Shown: one piece after another, positions 81 through 10,450 of the stretch
Layout: each line of letters begins with the position of its first letter
How positions within the stretch are numbered: the first letter of the stretch is position 1
Sequence record: NC_047979.1
Source of the DNA: Escherichia phage Gostya9
Reading direction: 5' to 3' (one strand)
Length of the DNA stretch: 64,000 nucleotides
Notes under the pieces: generated by a model
Seen by the model: only the letters and a program-made list of their open reading frames with translations
Told to the model about the DNA's origin: nothing
Database searches by the model: none
Translations under genes and position numbers: made by a program

Positions 81-812
81 TTACGCGACTTTTAATTTCT
101 CAATATATTGTTGTGGGCTGCAACTATATTCTGCGCGTTCTTCTTCGGTCATACCTTCCCAACATAATTGCAAGCGGTCGGCTAGGAACTGATAATCATT
201 ATCATCTTCAAGAGATTCATCAATAAAGGTTTCGCCGATCAATGTGACGCCTATTGATAGAATATCGTTAACGGCTTGCGCGTCCAGCGTTTTAAATCCA
301 TATGCCGCCGCCGCTGATAATACGCCTTTATGATCATCAATCATCGTGAAATCAGCGTTCGGATATAGCTGTTTGAATAGCTCAAAGTAATGGCTTTTAT
401 AAACAGCGTCTTTACTGTGGTATATCTCGCTAACCTTATCAGCCGAAAAATATTTGTGCAGTGTATCGCGGGAAAATACGCGGATATTGCTATTCCCTCG
501 CCCGCGCAGACCTTGCTTGCGTAGAAAATAATAATCTGATTTGCCCATCAGTCGAGCGGTGCAGATAATGTTTTGCGTGTTGCCGTCATTCATACACTGG
601 CGCATATAGGTAACTAGCGGCAAAAGCGTATCCTGCATTATTAACTCATGTTTGCACGCTTCATTTTTATACTTATTTAAATCTAAATCGCCTTCAATAT
701 CAAAGCAAGGCGCTACACGGTGAGCGGAGTTAATGATCGTGCCGTCCAGGTCCCAAATCATTACGCGGGAAATATGCGGGTAATTGCGGGTAATATTCGT
801 TACTTGATTCAT
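81..812 (-). CDS. dmp: 5'-deoxyribonucleotidase, HAD superfamily (Dmp-like)
   Basis: 243-aa ORF; HAD motif I DLDGT near N-terminus; size and terminal position match the T5 pre-early dmp gene (recalled, not searched). Confidence 0.75.
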   Translation of the reverse strand: MNQVTNITRNYPHISRVMIWDLDGTIINSAHRVAPCFDIEGDLDLNKYKNEACKHELIMQDTLLPLVTYMRQCMNDGNTQNIICTARLMGKSDYYFLRKQGLRGRGNSNIRVFSRDTLHKYFSADKVSEIYHSKDAVYKSHYFELFKQLYPNADFTMIDDHKGVLSAAAAYGFKTLDAQAVNDILSIGVTLIGETFIDESLEDDNDYQFLADRLQLCWEGMTEEERAEYSCSPQQYIEKLKVA

Positions 813-1358: not shown

Positions 1359-3023
1359 TTACGCGAAAAATTTGCCGTTTTTAAAGTCGATTAACGTGCG
1401 CTGCCCGTTCGCATATGTAATTACATGCGTTTGCGTCCAGCTTGATGCGCCCACGTTATAGCCCATGTCGAGGCTGCCCGATACGCCAGCAGTATATACG
1501 CCGCCGTAAATGCTGGCGGTATGGGTATGCCCCGTGTTTAATTTGCCCAACTTTTTAAACTGTTTCGGATTGCCACGACTCCCGTTAATGCCGTTGTGAC
1601 CGTGTACACCACACTCAATGCCTGCAATTTTAAATGATTGATCAGTGGTCAGGAAAATGGCGTTAAATTCACAACCTGCAACCTTACGTAGCGCATAATC
1701 AAGCACGTTGAAAGTATCGTCATTTTCTGCAATAGCTCCATAGATCGCGGCATTCAGGCGGTGATATAGTTCCGCGTTTGCTGGATCGTCTTTAATGTTA
1801 GCATTACGATCATCCAGCCAGCGAGATAGCGCCAGATCGTGGTTTGATTCAACGATGATTGTTTGCGAGAAATCGCGCTCCATTGATTCCAATACGCGGC
1901 CAGTATCAATGAGATCGTCCAGAACTTTATCACGTCCGGCGGCGTATTGTTTCGCTAGGAATACGCCCGATGCGCGGTTATGGTGGTTGCGTGATGTAAA
2001 GTCATGCACATCATGCACAAACTGATATTTTGGCTTGAGAATATCAAGCAAACTATTTTCGCCCGCCCATGACGCTGCGGCGCACGCCTTATCTAATTTT
2101 TCAGCGTGCACGTCGCCATACTGTAAACCTAAAACATGCCCCGATGTTTCATAGCATCCGGCGGGAGTGGCGCAAATATTCAAATCATAAAAAACGCCGG
2201 TTTCATCCATCGTCTCAAGCTGGCGAACAAAAAATGCCCCGTCCTCGTCGAACTCGACAATCAGCGCGCCAAAGTTATGTAACGCTTCGGCTTTTTGTCC
2301 TGCTTTCTGCTGAATGTAGTTTTTTAGCGTTGCCGCTCCCGTTGAGTACATACGGCGCACTACTTCACCTTTGAGCGCTGGGACACTTTCGGCGGTGATT
2401 TTTGCCGCTCCAATTGCCAGACCTTCAAGATCAAGCGCTGTTGCAGTCTCAGCGAATCCAGAAAGCGGATAGTCTGCCGTTGGCAAAACATTAATTTCAG
2501 CCATGAAAGCAAAGCGGCGATTATTTAAAAACACGTTTTTGCTGCAAATATATTTATCAAATACGGAGTCATATTTGATCCCGTCCGCGCCTTCTCCATT
2601 CTGGAATCCTTTTTTGTTATAAATGAACTTGCTAACCAGCAAATCAGCGCCGATAAATTGGGCGTAATGTTCAAGTGAGGCTAAAAAGTTTTTATGCGGG
2701 AACGTGTTGTTCTGGATTGATGTTATAATAAAGCGTTTACCCTGCTTTACTTCCCACTGTTCAACCGTGCTAGAAACAATACCCGCCGCCTCTGGGCGCT
2801 CGTCGTTTTTAATGGCTTTTTCTACTTTCGCCGCCTTTGGTTTCGCTGGTTTATTTGCTTCTAACCAATCACAGATCGCGGTGGAATGTTTTGTTGTATC
2901 GTACACCGCTTTTGATATATCGTCGCAGACTTCCAATCTAGTAGCGCGCAGACGTTTACCGTAAAAATTAAAATCAGCGGCCAGCTTCAGGATAACGGTT
3001 TGTTTTTCTGCGGAAATAACCAT
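1359..3023 (-). CDS. A1: A1-like pre-early protein with C-terminal metallophosphoesterase motifs
   Basis: 554-aa ORF; GVHGHNG and GHTHT phosphoesterase-type motifs near C-terminus; size close to T5 A1 as recalled (~556 aa). Confidence 0.75.
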   Translation of the reverse strand: MVISAEKQTVILKLAADFNFYGKRLRATRLEVCDDISKAVYDTTKHSTAICDWLEANKPAKPKAAKVEKAIKNDERPEAAGIVSSTVEQWEVKQGKRFIITSIQNNTFPHKNFLASLEHYAQFIGADLLVSKFIYNKKGFQNGEGADGIKYDSVFDKYICSKNVFLNNRRFAFMAEINVLPTADYPLSGFAETATALDLEGLAIGAAKITAESVPALKGEVVRRMYSTGAATLKNYIQQKAGQKAEALHNFGALIVEFDEDGAFFVRQLETMDETGVFYDLNICATPAGCYETSGHVLGLQYGDVHAEKLDKACAAASWAGENSLLDILKPKYQFVHDVHDFTSRNHHNRASGVFLAKQYAAGRDKVLDDLIDTGRVLESMERDFSQTIIVESNHDLALSRWLDDRNANIKDDPANAELYHRLNAAIYGAIAENDDTFNVLDYALRKVAGCEFNAIFLTTDQSFKIAGIECGVHGHNGINGSRGNPKQFKKLGKLNTGHTHTASIYGGVYTAGVSGSLDMGYNVGASSWTQTHVITYANGQRTLIDFKNGKFFA

Positions 3024-3375: not shown

Positions 3376-3792
3376 TTATTCACCTGCTGACTGTTTTACT
3401 TCATCTGCTACGCCTAGTAATTGCGCTACGGCGTCCAGCGTTTCTAATTTTGCGCTTTCCAGGCTTGCCAGATCGTCAGCGTCTTTGATAATGCCGGAAT
3501 CAATGGCGTGTTTTGCAATTACACGCACATAATGCGCCTTGCGGATTGAACTACCGCCGCCAACTTTGCGCGGTTTATCGCTTTTCTGATACGCTTTTGC
3601 GCTGGTCAATTTTGAGCGAACAGACACAGGGGAAGTAGCGCCCACTGTTTTGGCGATCTCTTTCAGGCCGTCGCTGTTGGCGAACTCAAGGCCGTTTTCA
3701 TTGATTAACTGCTGATACATAGAAACGGCTTTTTGGGTATTTTCTTCATTCCATGCAAATTTTGCGGATTTTTCGGTTTTAACGTTAGTCAT
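3376..3792 (-). CDS. putative HTH DNA-binding pre-early protein (possible A2-like)
   Basis: 138-aa ORF; helix-turn-helix-like segment LKEIAKTVGATSPVSVRSKL; conserved RBS context; A2 assignment is a guess. Confidence 0.45.
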   Translation of the reverse strand: MTNVKTEKSAKFAWNEENTQKAVSMYQQLINENGLEFANSDGLKEIAKTVGATSPVSVRSKLTSAKAYQKSDKPRKVGGGSSIRKAHYVRVIAKHAIDSGIIKDADDLASLESAKLETLDAVAQLLGVADEVKQSAGE

Positions 3793-4145: not shown

Positions 4146-5200
4146 GGTATAAACTCCAGTTATTTGATGGATTGTTCCGCATTACCTGCTAGAAAAGGGA
4201 TAACAGGTAATGGGTAACGATCCGTTCGCCGTTAAAATCAATTTAAGGAACTCCACACAGGCCGCTATATCCCGTTAGGGGGCGGGACACCTTATGGCAA
4301 GTGCCGGCCGTCAAATTGTACCAAGTTATTGCTCTTGTTGAATCGGGTACATCTTAAAGCCCATCGGCTAGGGTGTCAAATTATTTTTCGTTTTCTTTTA
4401 AATTAGAATTCTCCCAACTGAATTGCATCTCGCAAAATATTTTCCCATCTTTATGATGGTAAGATATTTCGCTCCCGTGGTTAGCACAAAAAGCGATCAC
4501 TGCCTCAGCTTGTTCCACCGTGATATTGTTAGCCGTTTCTTTGATTTTCATATCGTCGATTCCTTATAAGGTTAATAAGTTTGCCGCCGATAGGCTTTAA
4601 GGTGTACCTGATTTTTAAAGAGCGCGCGGCGGTAAACTCCCCGCCGTGTAGTCCGTTGCCGTCCTACGAGATAAATAATAGGGAATACCCAAAAATGGTG
4701 CAACCTTAATTTTGTAAAGAAATGTAAAGAAAGCAAATACTCGCACCGCGTCCGGTGATCGCCCAAGTTTAAAGGAAACGAGCGCGTGGATACCATAAAA
4801 CCGAGCTGATTGGCAAGTAATTTTTTCATTTTTATTTGCCTTGCCCTACTTGACAAATTCTAAAAAGCTCGTGGTGACGATAAACGGGCTGCCCCTTTAT
4901 GATGGGATACCTGAAAAAATTATCGCGTTAGAAAGCGTTTTTGGCCGCTTATTTTCGATTTAACAAATATTTAACAAAAGCAAAAATGAAAAATAGTTTG
5001 AAAAGGCATTGACTTTTAAAAATCAAGACTAAATGAGTTATTTTATAAAATTAATTAATTGACTTTTATTTGTTGTTGTGTAGTAGAAAGATAGCAGACT
5101 AATAATTACTAGAATGATAATCATGCTGGTGGGTTGTAACAGCCTGAACTATTAGCAGACTACTGATCCCGGAAAATATCATTAGCCAACTAACTATTCC

Positions 5201-5340
5201 ATAAGTTATAATAATTATAGAAATAATAACTATAGAAATAATAACTATAGAAATAATAACTATAGAAATAATAACTATAGAAATAATAACTATAGAAATA
5301 ATAACTATAGAAATAATAACTATAGAAATAATCACCGTTA
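5201..5340. repeat. 15-bp tandem repeat (TATAGAAATAATAAC), about 8-9 copies
   Basis: period-15 repetition read directly; produces the artefactual pentapeptide-repeat ORFs 5099..5350 and 5190..5414. Confidence 0.9.
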
Positions 5341-5394
5341 TAATAATCACTATAAGAAACTAATCGGCCTAAGTGAGAACCACTATCATTTAAG

Positions 5395-5486
5395 TTATCC
5401 ACAATGTTATCCACAGCACAAAATGATTTGACACGATAGGCGGCGATATAAGGACTTATCCACAGACTTATCCACAGGTTATCCTA
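5395..5486 (+). promoter_or_regulatory. cluster of four perfect DnaA boxes (TTATCCACA) plus one imperfect
   Basis: TTATCCACA at about 5395, 5407, 5456 and 5468, all same orientation; matches E. coli DnaA box consensus. Confidence 0.7.
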
Positions 5487-5504
5487 CTGTATATTTATAC
5501 AGGG
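5485..5504. promoter_or_regulatory. LexA (SOS) box-like palindrome
   Basis: TACTGTATATTTATACAGGG versus consensus TACTGTATATATATACAGTA; CTGT-N8-ACAG core intact. Confidence 0.6.
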
Positions 5505-5871
5505 TAAAAAGATAGTGTTTACAACTGCAATCAATTTTACGCGGCCTAAATCGCTTTCTAACGGGCTGATCGCTGTAGGGTAATATTAAAGTAAAGCCTC
5601 CAGCCGTTGCCCTGGAGGCTTCGCCGTGGTTTGCTCTTTACTGCACCGCTGCGCGGTTAGCATAAAACTAGGTGTTAGGCAAGAAAATAAAAAGTAAAGT
5701 AAACGTTGCCCCTAGAAAGAAAATAATTTTACCGGTAACATCGAAAGCGGGTAATAATTAACCTAGTGTAAAGTTTTGTAAGGCCAGCCATAATCGGCGG
5801 CCTTTATTGTTATAATGCCCTTACACCGTTTAAGGACGGTTAAAAATTTCCCACTAACTAGGAGAAGAAAA

Positions 5872-6051
5872 ATGGTTATTTTTCGATCTGTTCTGGCCGG
5901 TATCTTGGGCGCTATTCTGACTCTTTTTGCTACCGCTTACGGTATCCAGGATTCTTATTGTGGTTTAGTAAATACTAAACCGATGGTTATTATTGGCGCG
6001 GGTATCGCTGTTTTTTCTTATCTGCTGGGCTGCATGAATAAAGGGGAATAA
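5872..6051 (+). CDS. small membrane protein
   Basis: ATG preceded by AGGAGAAG RBS; 59 aa, two hydrophobic segments; first gene of a 4-gene plus-strand mini-operon. Confidence 0.45.
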   Translation: MVIFRSVLAGILGAILTLFATAYGIQDSYCGLVNTKPMVIIGAGIAVFSYLLGCMNKGE

Positions 6052-6052
6052 A

Positions 6053-6265
6053 ATGATCCGTAACGTTTCCCTTGCTCGTTCCAAAGGTTTTAAGCTGGTG
6101 GATGTAAACACGTTCGAGCGTCCTGATTGTAAAATCGAATATGTAGCGCGGAATAAAAACGCCTTTCGCGTTACAGAAAAGAGATTCGATAAGCGCGGCA
6201 ACATGATAATTGAAACGGTTAAATATTTTGCCACCTTTTACGCGGCCTTTCGTGGGGTACTATGA
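6053..6265 (+). CDS. hypothetical protein
   Basis: 70-aa ORF; start overlaps upstream stop (TAAAATG). Confidence 0.4.
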   Translation: MIRNVSLARSKGFKLVDVNTFERPDCKIEYVARNKNAFRVTEKRFDKRGNMIIETVKYFATFYAAFRGVL

Positions 6266-6369
6266 AGAGCGTTGTTATTGTTATCCTTGCAATGGTTGGC
6301 GGTTTTACTGCCACCTTATTAAAAAATGATCCTCTTTTATTGGGGGTTTTTATGCTTTTATCTGGTTAT
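6262..6369 (+). CDS. small hydrophobic protein (35 aa)
   Basis: ATG overlapping upstream stop; hydrophobic sequence; below the ORF-track size cutoff. Confidence 0.3.
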
Positions 6370-6388
6370 CTGATCGGGAGGTTATAAA

Positions 6389-6733
6389 ATGGTGATTTAT
6401 GAAGGTGATCGCTTTATTGCTGATTGCCGTCCGGCATTGTTAGCAAACTATTTAAATCAGCTTTCGCCAGTATATAAAGGCGTCCTAAATATTTATGAAG
6501 GTGAGGCGCATTATAAGGTCAATGCGGTCGTCGCCCGTGAACTAGCGTTTCAATTTTTGACCTTTGCATCTTGCGGTATTCAGGTCATGGGTGAAGCGTT
6601 AATAGCAGAAAATGAAGATGATTTTATTAATATCTTCCGCAAAATATGCACCGAGCGCCTGATAATGAAAGGGGCGTATATTCAATCAACTGCGGATAGT
6701 ATTGAAACGGCTTTTAGAAAGGGGGCACAATGA
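6389..6733 (+). CDS. hypothetical protein
   Basis: 114-aa ORF preceded by GGGAGG RBS. Confidence 0.45.
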   Translation: MVIYEGDRFIADCRPALLANYLNQLSPVYKGVLNIYEGEAHYKVNAVVARELAFQFLTFASCGIQVMGEALIAENEDDFINIFRKICTERLIMKGAYIQSTADSIETAFRKGAQ

Positions 6734-6859
6734 AGCTATATATTTTCGCGGGTAATGTTGAGGCTGCAAATGATTCCGCTGGTGGCGATAACGTTCGCCA
6801 TTATTGGCAAAATTATATTTACTAGGCGTAATAATCACGGGGCACAACTATCAGGGAGT

Positions 6860-6892
6860 GCCCCTGATTCTCAAATGAGAATGATTCTCATT
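6860..6892. repeat. palindrome AAATGAGAATGATTCTCATTT
   Basis: perfect inverted repeat; related palindromes recur at 7355-7380, 7553-7575 and 7588-7615. Confidence 0.7.
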
Positions 6893-7095
6893 TGACCGCG
6901 CCCGCTATGGTTAGCCTGCTAATGATTAGGGTGTTACGTGTCACCTTGCGTGATCGTTAGCCTGCAAATGATTAGCCTGCAAATGATTTGACCGCGCCCG
7001 CGATGGTTAGCCTGCAAATGATTAGCCTGCAAATGATTAGCCTGCAAATGATTAGGGTGTTATTTGTCGCCTTGTGTGATGGTTAGCGGGCTAAC
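6889..7095. repeat. two copies of a ~75-100-bp direct repeat containing 15-bp subrepeats (GATTAGCCTGCAAAT)
   Basis: TTTGACCGCGCCCGC..GGTTAGCCTGC..AGGGTGTTA unit seen twice with 2-3 tandem 15-mers inside. Confidence 0.8.
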
Positions 7096-7213
7096 TAATT
7101 TTCAAGCCTTCTTCAATTTTGCCCTTGTTTTAGTATCCCCACCAAAATAAAACGCGTTAGAAAGCGATTCAGGGCGTTTTAGGCCTATATTAGAATTATT
7201 CACTGCGTAGGAA

Positions 7214-7233
7214 TACTGTATAAATATACAGTA
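7214..7233. promoter_or_regulatory. LexA (SOS) box-like palindrome
   Basis: TACTGTATAAATATACAGTA, one mismatch to the LexA consensus; exact reverse complement of the 19-bp segment at 5484-5502. Confidence 0.65.
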
Positions 7234-7242
7234 GAATAACCT

Positions 7243-7323
7243 GGGGATAAGTCGGTGGATAACGCTTCAAAATGGCTAGAATTTTGTCAAGGCAAATCGT
7301 GCTGTTGATAAGTCTGTGGATAA
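7243..7323 (-). promoter_or_regulatory. DnaA-box cluster, opposite orientation to the 5395 cluster
   Basis: TGTGGATAA perfect at about 7315; GGTGGATAA and weaker GGGGATAAG / TTGATAAG nearby. Confidence 0.55.
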
Positions 7324-7340
7324 CTTAAATAACAGTGTTT

Positions 7341-7620
7341 CTCACTTCCGTTTTTAAATGCGAATCATTATCATTTGCACTCCACTTCTTGAATAGTTCT
7401 CATTCCACTTCTTGAATAGTTCTCATTCCACTTCTTGAATAGTTCTCATTCCACTTCTTGAATAGTTCTCATTCCACTTCTTGAATAGTTATCATTCCAC
7501 TTTTTAAATGATAATCATTCCACTTCTTAAATGATAATCATTTCACTTTTTAAATGAGAATGATTATCATTCGCATTCCACTTCTTAAATGCGAATCATT
7601 CTCATTCGCATTTAGGCGAG
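7341..7620. repeat. 23-bp tandem repeat array (CCACTTCTTGAATAGTTCTCATT, about 9 units with variants) containing palindromic sub-sites
   Basis: five near-identical units followed by diverged units; embedded palindromes AAATGCGAAT..ATTCGCATTT. Confidence 0.85.
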
Positions 7621-7636
7621 CAGGGCAATTGCCCTG
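7621..7636. repeat. perfect 16-bp palindrome CAGGGCAATTGCCCTG
   Basis: read directly. Confidence 0.7.
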
Positions 7637-7643
7637 CGCTTAT

Positions 7644-8443
7644 GTGCAAATCCGACAATTGCTCCAAGGGTTACGCGTGGGCATGTATGTGCAAATCCGA
7701 CCCATTTTTTGGTAGTGTGCAAATCCGACCCTAAAAATTTATAAATTCGTGAGAGTGACGAATCTGTCTCCCAAAAACTCCAGCAATCACGAACTGCGTT
7801 CGAATCCTGTGGGGTATGTGCAAATCCGACACGGTTTTTCTAGGATTAAGATGTGCGAATCCGATGAAATTTTTGTGACTTCGATGAGAGGGTGTGTGAT
7901 TGTATAGGTTTGAGGAGAAGGTGAGAGAGCGGGAGAAATTTTGGGACTAGAAGGATGTGGGCGCAGGATTGGTGCGGAGCACCTGATTTGCGGGGGTTTT
8001 GGGGGATAGTTGAGGTAATTTGGGGAAATTTGAGATAGGTGCAGAAAAAGTAAAATTTTATTAGCTAAATGGGGCAAAATAGCTTGACGAGTGAAAATTC
8101 TTGTGGCTCTAAAAACTCAGGCAATCACGGGCCTTCGGCCCGAAATAATGCTGCCATTTTCAGGAGATTATATGTTCCTAAAAACTTAGGCGTTTGTGCA
8201 AATCCGACCATAAGTTTCTAGAAACACAATGTACAAAACCGACAGTAATTTCTGGGAATGTGTTTTCAAAAAATGTCTTCTAGAAATAACCGCCCTCCCT
8301 ATAACCGCCCTATATTAACCGCCTATGCTAGAGTTTCTAGGAACAATGAAAACTGCCCTAGAATTTGTGCAAATCCGATGAATATTTCTGTGTGATCTCT
8401 AGAATTTATACTTATCAATTTCCTAGAATATGTGCAAATCCGA
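7644..8443 (+). repeat. dispersed direct repeat family TGTGCAAATCCGA(C/T), at least 8 copies, same orientation
   Basis: copies near 7644, 7688, 7716, 7817, 7853 (variant), 8194, 8365 and 8430; frequently followed by a T-run; one extra copy inside CDS at about 10107. Confidence 0.8.
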
Positions 8444-8891: not shown

Positions 8892-9776
8892 TTATAATAA
8901 TTCTTGGTATGCTTTTTGATACGCCTCAGTATCTGTAGGTGTACCTTTTGCTAACGCAATTAGTTCATCCGTTATCTGAATATTCGTATTATAACGTGTG
9001 TGGAACTCGTCAGGGATTTCTAGATATCTATTTATGAACGCTGCAGCAAGCGGTGAAGCTACACCCATTTCTAGAACCCATCCAACATGGTTTTCAAACT
9101 TCAGATAAGGGGAATCAGATGGGGTTGGTGGGGTTACATCAATTTTCTCTGGTTCTTTTTCTGGAAGCAATGGATTACTATATAATGCTTCATCTGGAAG
9201 CACAGATTTACGCTCTTTAAATATATAAGTTTCTAGATCAGATGCCTTAGATCCTGAGTACACAGCAAAAACGCTAGCTTTACCTTGTGATGCCCTAACT
9301 GGTAGATAACTAGTAGGATAGCTTCTTAATGCATCATGGAATGGACTTCCTGAATATTTGTACGTATCTCCATAGAGATCATCAATATTCATTCGTTCAT
9401 CTTCAAAAATGTGAAATGACTTAAATGGTGGAATGGTGAAGTACTCCATCTGTAATCCATAAACTAAGAAACGATGTGCATATGCACTGATTTTTAAGAC
9501 TGTGAATGCTTTTTCACCTTCTTTATGGGCATTGCCCTTTGAAGTAACTGGGTAACGTTTACAAAACATCTCTACTAGACGTTTCTCATTAATATTGAGT
9601 GAGGAATATAAACGTCCATTTAGCCCTATAAGTGCATCGAACATAAATGCTAGTTTATCTTTTTCTTCTTGGGTTAGTCCAGGAAACGGAAGTACTTTAG
9701 CATTAGGAACACTATTATTCTCTTTAGGTTTTGTTTTACCAGCATTTTGTCTTAGTTTATCTTTAAAGTTATACAT
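8892..9776 (-). CDS. hypothetical protein
   Basis: 294-aa ORF; GGGAG RBS upstream; no motif recognised. Confidence 0.55.
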   Translation of the reverse strand: MYNFKDKLRQNAGKTKPKENNSVPNAKVLPFPGLTQEEKDKLAFMFDALIGLNGRLYSSLNINEKRLVEMFCKRYPVTSKGNAHKEGEKAFTVLKISAYAHRFLVYGLQMEYFTIPPFKSFHIFEDERMNIDDLYGDTYKYSGSPFHDALRSYPTSYLPVRASQGKASVFAVYSGSKASDLETYIFKERKSVLPDEALYSNPLLPEKEPEKIDVTPPTPSDSPYLKFENHVGWVLEMGVASPLAAAFINRYLEIPDEFHTRYNTNIQITDELIALAKGTPTDTEAYQKAYQELL

Positions 9777-9793
9777 TATTATCTCCCATTTTT

Positions 9794-9828
9794 AAGGTCT
9801 GGATGACCTTCTTTTTATTTTAGAGCCT
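9794..9828 (+). terminator. rho-independent terminator-like hairpin oriented on plus strand
   Basis: AAGGTC-TGGAT-GACCTT followed by CTTTTTATTTT; a second hairpin GAGCCTC-CGTA-GAGGCTC lies at 9831-9849. Confidence 0.45.
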
Positions 9829-9853
9829 CCGTAGAGGCTCATGTATTAGAGGG

Positions 9854-10450
9854 TTAACTACCTCTCTTATCTTCATTAATAACAGCTCCTAGTGCCCCCA
9901 TAATTGCATCTTCTATACTTCCATGCTTACTAGGATTGCTTAAGTGAATAGTATATGAGTTCCTAGAAACTCCAGAGTCCACAGGCGCTACGCTTTTCAT
10001 ATCAGACTCAAAAGCTTCTTGAGTATGTTTCAATTGTGCAGAAGGTCCATAATCTTCCCCAAACTTATATGACTGTGTACTACTTACCGCACCCCCACAT
10101 GGAACATTGTGCAAATCCGATGGATTATTTAACAGTGCAATGCCACTTCTCGGCCACAGGTCACTAACATGGGTACTAGGACGGTTAACCTCAGTCTTCA
10201 CAAGTTTATAACCAGCATCGATCAGTGCATTAATAAGGTTATCAGCTGGAATGCGAGCCTTGCCGAAAATCTCACGAGCGTTGTTGAGCCTACCTTCAAA
10301 ACCTTTACATGCTCTAATATTAGTGTGTGCAAAGGTTAGCTTCATAGATTTGAATTGTACAGTAGCAGTTAAATCTTTAAAGCTATAATCCCACGTATTC
10401 AGTTCATGATCTGGTACTACTTGAATAGATTGTTGTGCATATAAAGTCAT
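9854..10450 (-). CDS. hypothetical protein
   Basis: 198-aa ORF; contains an internal copy of the TGTGCAAATCCGA motif. Confidence 0.55.
   Translation of the reverse strand: MTLYAQQSIQVVPDHELNTWDYSFKDLTATVQFKSMKLTFAHTNIRACKGFEGRLNNAREIFGKARIPADNLINALIDAGYKLVKTEVNRPSTHVSDLWPRSGIALLNNPSDLHNVPCGGAVSSTQSYKFGEDYGPSAQLKHTQEAFESDMKSVAPVDSGVSRNSYTIHLSNPSKHGSIEDAIMGALGAVINEDKRGS

Follow-up and report, generated by a model that had tools for sequence, protein, structure and literature searches.

Positions 5,395 to 7,323 of a 64,000-nucleotide stretch of Escherichia phage Gostya9 DNA (NC_047979.1; the whole stretch is called the window here) contain two mirrored clusters of DnaA-type boxes, each accompanied by a LexA-like palindrome, on either side of a segment with small rightward open reading frames (ORFs). 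Over bases 5100-7800, identity amounts to 92% with Escherichia phages DT57C and DT571/2 and to 87% with T5, and 520 related phage records were found. Given these identities and the collinearity with DT57C, whose coordinates run approx. 44 bases ahead, and with T5, the window constitutes the leftmost 64 kb of a genome of the T5-like type (Tequintavirus). Two pre-early genes on the minus strand, A1 (1359-3023) and A2 (3376-3792), lie to the left of the mirrored clusters, which occupy the right half of the left terminal repeat between A1/A2 and the repeat end. The region belongs to the first-entering DNA of a T5-like phage and is, as a first-pass annotation made from the sequence alone had proposed, a pre-early, terminal region.

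The clusters form the arms of a true inverted repeat of 132 nt (5371-5502 and 7216-7347) that are 78% complementary and have 1713 nt between them. By alignment, they are the IRC-spacer-IRD and IRD′-spacer-IRC′ inverted repeats of the T5-type left terminal repeat. T5 (AY587007) positions 6022-6352 align by blastn with the left arm at 80.7% identity, and window positions 7122-7463, covering the right arm, align with T5 9237-9579 at 89.6%; at the aligned arms the T5 record is annotated with inverted repeats C, D, D′ and C′. In a second T5 record, positions 9140-10149 are marked 'injection stop signal' and include the counterpart of the right arm. A comparison with the first-step-transfer and injection-stop region of T5, suggested in the first-pass annotation, has thus led to matching inverted repeats. 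The hallmarks of the T5-type injection-stop repeat, i.e. location in the terminal repeat, two inverted arms of approx. 131 nt and paired DnaA boxes, are all present. Position, arm length (132 versus 131 nt), 3-bp gaps between paired boxes, the 61 bp between pairs and the flanking repeats are shared with T5, and sequence identity amounts to 81-90%. In contrast to T5, which has lost one of them, the four left boxes are all perfect in Gostya9, the bracketed segment measures 1.7 kb rather than 3.2 kb, and two repeat arrays (5208-5339, 6904-7053) found no match by blastn in the compared left-terminal-repeat region of T5. The feature is real, not due to chance, and orthologous to the described T5 element.

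Five perfect DnaA boxes and three with one mismatch are arranged in pairs over the two arms (Table 1). The four perfect left boxes reported at first pass are present on the plus strand, starting at 5395, 5407, 5456 and 5468. Its inverted right boxes are likewise found on the minus strand from 7242 onwards, where only the box at 7315-7323 is perfect. The perfect nonamer TTATCCACA occurs five times in 64 kb (0.72 expected), and all five copies fall within the arms. Geometry is fixed as well. The starts of the two pairs are 61 bp apart in both arms (repeat families D10 and D12), as are the copies of direct repeat B in T5, which start at 9357 and 9418, and in both arms 8 bp separate the LexA-like 20-mer from the nearest DnaA box. 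The DnaA half of this arrangement is already described in the literature. In 25 T5-like phages, Davison reported eight conserved DnaA boxes in pairs with 3-bp gaps, two pairs to an arm and the spacer constant, and credited the first DnaA boxes to a paper from 1987 (10.1101/866236).

The palindrome next to the DnaA boxes closely resembles the LexA operator of gammaproteobacteria (consensus TACTGTATATATATACAGTA), with which it has the core CTGT-N8-ACAG, an AT-rich centre and flanking TA in common. The right site (7214-7233) agrees with the consensus at 19 of 20 positions, including the outer TA...TA, and the left site, taken as a 20-mer ending in GGG (5485-5504), at 17 of 20. Of the two boxes described as near-consensus at first pass, the right one has a single mismatch and the left one three. 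The two were said to be exact reverse complements; this applies to 7216-7233 and TACTGTATATTTATACAG at 5485-5502, not to the whole of 7214-7233. In the window, 20-mers with up to three mismatches to the LexA consensus were found twice (0.00 expected) and CTGT-N8-ACAG five times (0.72 expected), the other three sites having GC-rich or irregular centres. The concern that DnaA and LexA matches might be expected by chance at this AT content is met by these counts. With an approximate position weight matrix built from 20 E. coli operators of the literature, the right box (25.8) scored higher than all 20 operators and the left box (22.7) ranked with the best of them, far above the next site in the window (14.1). 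In T5, the annotated 'palindrome D' falls exactly on the right site. A DNA structure was rejected as the explanation of the palindrome: the single-strand hairpin is weak (−4.9 kcal/mol), so that recognition of the duplex by a protein explains conservation better. Because of the 19/20 match including the outer TA flanks, LexA would be the simplest candidate for such a reader.

Conservation of the palindrome is deep. With an A1 profile, 80 loci were collected from IMG/VR, 45 of which belong to the T5 family (44 with enough upstream DNA) while 35 share only the A1 homologue. Two LexA-like boxes were present in all 44 T5-family loci and in none of the 35 others, which disposes of a lack of conservation in related phages as an objection. 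A search anchored on the DnaA pair, and hence independent of the LexA-like box, recovered T5-like contigs that all carried CTGTATA(AA/TT)ATATACAG alongside. In the most distant relatives, blastn homology to the right arm begins at query base 16-22, that is, at the start of the box. The box occupies both equivalent places, the proximal one in the stretch that separates the A2-side genes from the following gene block and the distal one beside the DnaA boxes near the terminal-repeat end, in Pectobacterium My1, Serratia Kamaji, Klebsiella Shiner, Erwinia KEY, Proteus phage 1 and Vibrio phages phi 3 and VF16. The weakest case is Vibrio phi 3, whose proximal copy lacks the final CAG. A1 of the box-carrying Vibrio and Proteus phages is 32-43% identical to A1 of the window. 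When the injection-stop-side arms of ten phages from seven host genera were aligned, the box was the longest fully conserved block, followed by the second DnaA box. In most phages, CTG and the first DnaA box are spaced 26 nt apart, and the palindrome centre reads AAAT or ATTT, the same 16-mer seen from one strand or the other. No phage has lost CTG...CAG on the injection-stop side, where the most frequent change is CTGG/CCAG, as it is in chromosomal SOS boxes. All true T5-family hosts found were Gammaproteobacteria, a class with LexA boxes of the E. coli type. In a search for T5-like phages of hosts with a different LexA motif, the A1 homologue of Rhizobium phage RHph_Y2_17_1 turned out to reside in a replication module with no pre-early terminal region.

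Two further observations concern the arm motifs. The arm spacer of Vibrio and Pectobacterium phages contains a second, half-degenerate copy of the palindrome, ATGTATAAATATACAG, with a DnaA box directly after it (locus L128, 7300-7315; L129, 6916-6931; spacer of L124/L172, My1), and the ancestral arm may have consisted of two units, each with a LexA-like and a DnaA element. More than 100 viral contigs of IMG/VR that are not T5-like (L004-L123) also contain the tandem DnaA-box pair ATAACCTGTGGATAAGTC, often in noncoding arrays of several boxes.

The whole 16-mer including its centre is nearly invariant, more so than host SOS boxes, as might be expected of an operator read by a phage protein. Foremost among such candidates is A2, an essential DNA-binding protein, which by itself or together with A1 would bind next to the stop site to restart transfer; the likeness to LexA operators would then be incidental or would reflect competition with LexA. 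A2 homologues were detected by tblastn in all box-carrying phages, and contigs with an A1 homologue only carry no boxes. Moreover, A2 is annotated as a DNA-binding protein required for DNA transfer, and the N-terminal half of its all-helical AlphaFold model (predicted local distance difference test score 84.5) resembles a helix-turn-helix. A2 as a mimic of LexA was nevertheless rejected after Pfam, PDB sequence, AlphaFold and Foldseek searches revealed no LexA-like signal. The local Pfam search gave no match (a precomputed assignment to PF26822 exists), no PDB sequence matched, and Foldseek against the PDB returned a best match of E = 0.73 and LexA (3jsp_B) at E = 4.1 over 59 columns. A2 could read the palindrome without such mimicry, a candidacy kept alive by the near-invariant centre, which exceeds what LexA recognition needs. 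To our knowledge, no specific A2 binding site has been described. As a match to the host consensus at 19 of 20 positions, outer TA...TA included, is very unlikely for an unrelated operator, and no LexA-like fold was seen in A2, we regard an A2 operator as a serious but rather doubtful explanation.

The arms could also be mainly recombination substrates for flipping or exchanging the enclosed cassette, or remnants of an old mobile unit, with the boxes as mere passengers. Where the T5.011 homologue lies with respect to A1, and on which strand, shows that Klebsiella (Sugarlandvirus), Pectobacterium (Myunavirus) and Eos phages carry the cassette in the orientation opposite to that in T5, DT57C, Erwinia KEY, Serratia Kamaji and Proteus phages (loci L124, L126, L127 and L167-L172, compared with L132-L166, L175 and L176). 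This pattern is what recombination between inverted arms would produce, and both the gene content between the arms and their spacing (approx. 1.6 to 4.6 kb) are highly variable. The arms are only 78% alike, and yet the boxes inside them are kept, which argues for selection on the motifs rather than on length of homology. Furthermore, the right arm is kept even in phages without a left arm (10.1101/866236), and no gene for a transposase or recombinase accompanies the arms. Recombination as their main purpose is thus improbable.

Eight clustered DnaA-type boxes next to a stretch of AT-rich 15-bp tandem repeats with 27% G+C (5208-5339) are reminiscent of a DnaA-dependent replication origin. The AT-rich array adjoins the left arm, has no equivalent at the right arm and is absent from T5. 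According to literature summarised by Davison, T5 origins are situated near the centre of the genome, and the replication genes arrive only with the second transfer step (10.1101/866236). As the left arm is in addition dispensable (10.64898/2026.04.02.716235), the replication role considered in the first-pass annotation is unlikely, and a DnaA-dependent origin is the explanation to which we give the least credence of all.

Between the arms, five small plus-strand ORFs were counted instead of the four noted previously. Homologues of T5.011 and T5.012 were not detected there by tblastn (5503-5871, compared with T5 6153-7824); their absence accounts for the shorter bracket (1.7 kb versus 3.2 kb in T5). 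To the left of the left arm, the hegG region of T5 has no blastn match in the window, and no such gene is annotated in DT57C. Window positions 5724-5853 align with T5 7396-7526, which hold a terminator and the putative promoter P5, and the extended −10 element found here (Table 1) is the likely promoter of the small-ORF operon. No known RNA families were found between 4500 and 8500.

This organisation bears on whether the palindromes are classical SOS operators through which LexA would repress the small-ORF operon or a convergent transcript until DNA damage induces it. Operator quality is very high, one enclosed ORF belongs to a PHROG annotated as a DNA-damage-related nickase, and a weak promoter-like match on the minus strand (7224-7195, 9/12) has its first hexamer inside the right box. 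A consensus scan, however, revealed no plus-strand promoter-like site overlapping either box, and such sites are not enriched in the region (13 observed, 10.5 expected), so that promoter overlap was rejected. The −10 element, the only good one, lies approx. 310 bp downstream of the left box, and the right box follows the operon after two terminator-like hairpins. In T5, the left box lies between the annotated positions of the putative promoters P3 and P4, approx. 200 and 180 bp away, respectively, and a promoter upstream of gene 011 is one of three that have been characterised experimentally. Thus, judged on sequence and annotation, neither box is placed on or directly behind a credible promoter. 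Genera also differ in the genes between the arms and in their orientation, while the boxes stay. Control of a small-gene operon, as envisaged at first pass, is not borne out, and the boxes are probably not a classical SOS switch, an explanation we consider quite improbable.

We favour, with moderate confidence, a reading in which the arms are composite landing pads for LexA and DnaA that play a structural, boundary or holding role near the injection stop. Each arm would offer one very strong predicted LexA operator 8 bp from the first of two DnaA-box pairs. Since first-step-transfer DNA enters the cell naked, immediate occupancy would be expected, with resident LexA dimers and DnaA binding side by side, and a nucleoprotein complex would form at either end of the cassette of rightward pre-early genes. 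The right arm is situated approx. 285-400 bp leftward of the probable counterpart of the T5 7.9% nick site (7632-7639), close to where the first-step DNA is sheared. The distal complex, some 300-400 bp inside the place where transfer pauses, could help to fix the inner end of the first-step DNA. In addition, the arm complexes could stop RNA polymerase from leaving or entering the cassette, and the DnaA boxes, being mirrored, would suit a block that depends on orientation, such as that known from the asnC/mioC genes. We infer both the occupancy by LexA and DnaA and the boundary or holding function.

Several points weigh against this composite-pad reading. The LexA and DnaA sites are predicted ones, and a cytoplasmic protein bound to incoming DNA has no obvious means to halt entry. 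A T5 mutant lacking hegG to 017 is viable and forms small plaques (10.64898/2026.04.02.716235). By T5 coordinates the deleted interval includes the left arm, which is thus dispensable, and IRC/IRD are absent from some T5-like phages (10.1101/866236). The left box has CAA instead of CAG in four closely related loci, suggesting weaker selection on this site. The near-invariant centre (ATAAATAT or its complement) exceeds what LexA recognition needs, so that another reader is possible. Finally, T5-like phages have been isolated on DH5alpha, a recA1 strain. Infection therefore does not need LexA cleavage, and any SOS-sensing role must be dispensable. For the same reason, a strong form of release, in which degradation of host DNA driven by A1 leads to RecA-mediated cleavage of LexA and thereby lifts the stop, was rejected.

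The stop of T5 transfer after 8% of the genome and its restart have been a question for some sixty years. In vitro, transfer completes with the receptor alone, as pointed out by Davison (10.1101/866236), which suggests a host factor for the pause in vivo. For the stop, Davison proposed membrane-bound DnaA holding the incoming DNA at the arms (10.1101/866236), a hypothesis that, as the BF23 genome paper points out, no experiment has addressed. Host-factor control of DNA entry, put forward in the first-pass annotation in ignorance of the described arrangement, had in this respect already been published. DnaA is the only published host candidate and, being essential, is hard to remove. A near-perfect predicted LexA operator at a fixed distance from the DnaA boxes, kept from Escherichia to Vibrio phages, provides a second one. 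Since LexA is removable (lexA(Def) sulA) or can be rendered uncleavable, and one or two base changes suffice to destroy its site, the host-factor hypothesis becomes directly testable. That host LexA and DnaA, possibly with Fur, are the missing host component of two-step DNA delivery is a bolder claim and an unlikely one. If true, a strictly lytic family would use host repressors as structural holders or markers of the first-transferred DNA at the injection stop, and these would be the first known LexA operators that work outside promoter control. If LexA binding is absent or irrelevant, the element is the already described T5 repeat structure and an ordinary finding.

The LexA identity of palindrome D and its conservation in the T5 family appear, from sequence comparison and the literature searched, to be unreported. 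Davison lists the palindrome under the name palD only, regards it as a possible site of restriction-like cleavage and mentions neither LexA nor SOS (10.1101/866236); nor does the BF23 genome paper mention LexA. Our literature search found nothing linking T5, T5-like phages, Tequintavirus or Demerecviridae to a LexA or SOS box, although an older remark may exist.

The scores of the two boxes equal or exceed those of chromosomal LexA operators. In contrast to chromosomal operators, the predicted sites described here have no recognisable promoter under them, are paired with DnaA boxes, include one at the end of a transcription unit and occur in a strictly lytic phage. Host LexA controls several mobile elements, for instance at the rstA promoter of CTXphi, at tum of coliphage 186, in GIL01 together with gp7 and at colicin operators. 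The T5-like palindromes, as predicted sites, share with them the presence of host LexA operators on a mobile genome. However, the operators of these elements overlap a promoter and couple induction or lysis to DNA damage. No promoter overlap is seen here, and T5-like phages grow on a recA1 host. Clusters of DnaA boxes outside origins are known from datA, DARS and the transcription blocks at asnC/mioC, the latter reportedly described by Schaefer and Messer. Clustered high-affinity 9-mers in fixed orientation are common to these loci and to the arms, and the mirrored orientation would suit a block of RNA polymerase as at asnC/mioC. Unlike in those systems, no IHF site or unwinding element was identified here.

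Table 1. Features of the Gostya9 window in and around the mirrored arms (D, repeat families; I, inverted repeats)
Feature	Position	Strand	Remarks
Fur-like TGATAATNATTATCA, perfect	190-204		inside ORF 81-812 (−)
15-bp AT-rich tandem unit ATAATAACTATAGAA	5208-5339		eight to nine copies, 27% G+C; directly left of left arm
Left arm, equivalent of T5 IRC-spacer-IRD	5371-5502		inverted repeat I1
DnaA boxes, first left pair TTATCCACA	5395-5403, 5407-5415	+	both perfect, 3-bp gap
DnaA boxes, second left pair TTATCCACA	5456-5464, 5468-5476	+	both perfect
Left LexA-like operator TACTGTATATTTATACAGGG	5485-5504		core CTGT-N8-ACAG at 5487-5502; matrix score 22.7
Extended −10 TGtTATAAT, likely promoter of small-ORF operon	5808-5816	+	probable counterpart of T5 P5 region
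Small pre-early ORF, T5.013-like	5872-6051	+	tblastn to T5 proteins
Small pre-early ORF, T5.014-like, 70 aa	6053-6265	+	tblastn; PHROG 4227
Small pre-early ORF, 41 aa	6262-6387	+	ORF list
Small pre-early ORF, T5.015-like, 114 aa	6389-6733	+	tblastn; PHROG of unknown function
Small pre-early ORF, 31 aa	6730-6825	+	ORF list
Fur-box-like palindrome with TGAGAATGATTCTCA	6868-6893		family D6, inverted repeats I8 and I10
15-bp repeats TTAGCCTGCAAATGA, seven copies in two groups	6904-7053	+	families D4, D5, D9
CGTTAGAAAGCG element (T5 IRB-type) in hairpin AAAACGC...GCGTTTT	7155-7176		mirrored at 5542-5563; I6, I2
Right LexA-like operator TACTGTATAAATATACAGTA	7214-7233		equals T5 'palindrome D'; matrix score 25.8
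Right arm, equivalent of T5 IRD′-spacer-IRC′	7216-7347		inverted repeat I1
DnaA-type boxes TTATCCCCA, TTATCCACC	7242-7250, 7254-7262	−	one mismatch each
DnaA-type boxes TTATCAACA, TTATCCACA	7303-7311, 7315-7323	−	one mismatch; perfect
23-bp repeats and Fur-box-like palindromes (T5 DRC/DRE, palE to palI)	7351-7614		families D2, D3, D6, I3
Fur-box-like palindromes	6876-6890, 7359-7373, 7555-7569; also 7508-7522, 7531-7545, 7590-7604
CCCTGCGC, counterpart of major T5 7.9% nick near first-step-transfer shear point	7632-7639		by alignment, probable
TGTGCAAATCCGAC repeats (T5 direct repeat D)	7640-7874	+	families D7, D8; T5 annotation

Motifs resembling the Fur box would add a third host regulator to the region. 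The 7-1-7 motif TGATAATNATTATCA with up to two mismatches occurs five times in the window (0.85 expected), four of them in the terminal repeat, and the 19-mer Fur consensus three times (0.06 expected). Copies with one or two mismatches flank the right arm. Nearly all relatives from Escherichia and Salmonella have such motifs next to the right arm; elsewhere they are sparser. Davison does not mention Fur (10.1101/866236). Judging from these predicted motifs, the stop region may be mosaic, combining sites for several abundant regulators of the host. A Fur-like palindrome, AATGAGAATCATTCGCATT, was also seen beside DnaA boxes in contig L091, one of the contigs that are not T5-like.

Among the remaining repeats, window positions 6827-7121 have no blastn match to the T5 left-terminal-repeat locus except for the Fur-like palindrome at 6872-6893. 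To the left of the left arm, ATCATTAGCCAACTAAC at 5178-5197 is related to the TTAGCCTGCAAATGA array in inverted orientation (I12). An equivalent of the CGTTAGAAAGCG element precedes the LexA-like box in Vibrio phages. At about the equivalent of 5208-5339, DT57C has a minus-strand ORF annotated as 'repeat completion protein', which, if it covers the array, is probably a repeat artefact.

Regarding the cassette, PHROG 4227, to which the T5.014-like ORF belongs, bears the label 'endonuclease nicking abasic sites generated by host uracil glycosylase Ung', and a T5 preprint from 2026 assigns the pre-early nuclease to Gp015; gene numbering may be shifted between the two sources. T5-like sequences were also met under unlikely hosts (Listeria phage LM 4-11-1 and Campylobacter phage records), as were A2 proteins labelled Brucella melitensis and Enterococcus faecalis; such records probably reflect contamination or mislabelling.

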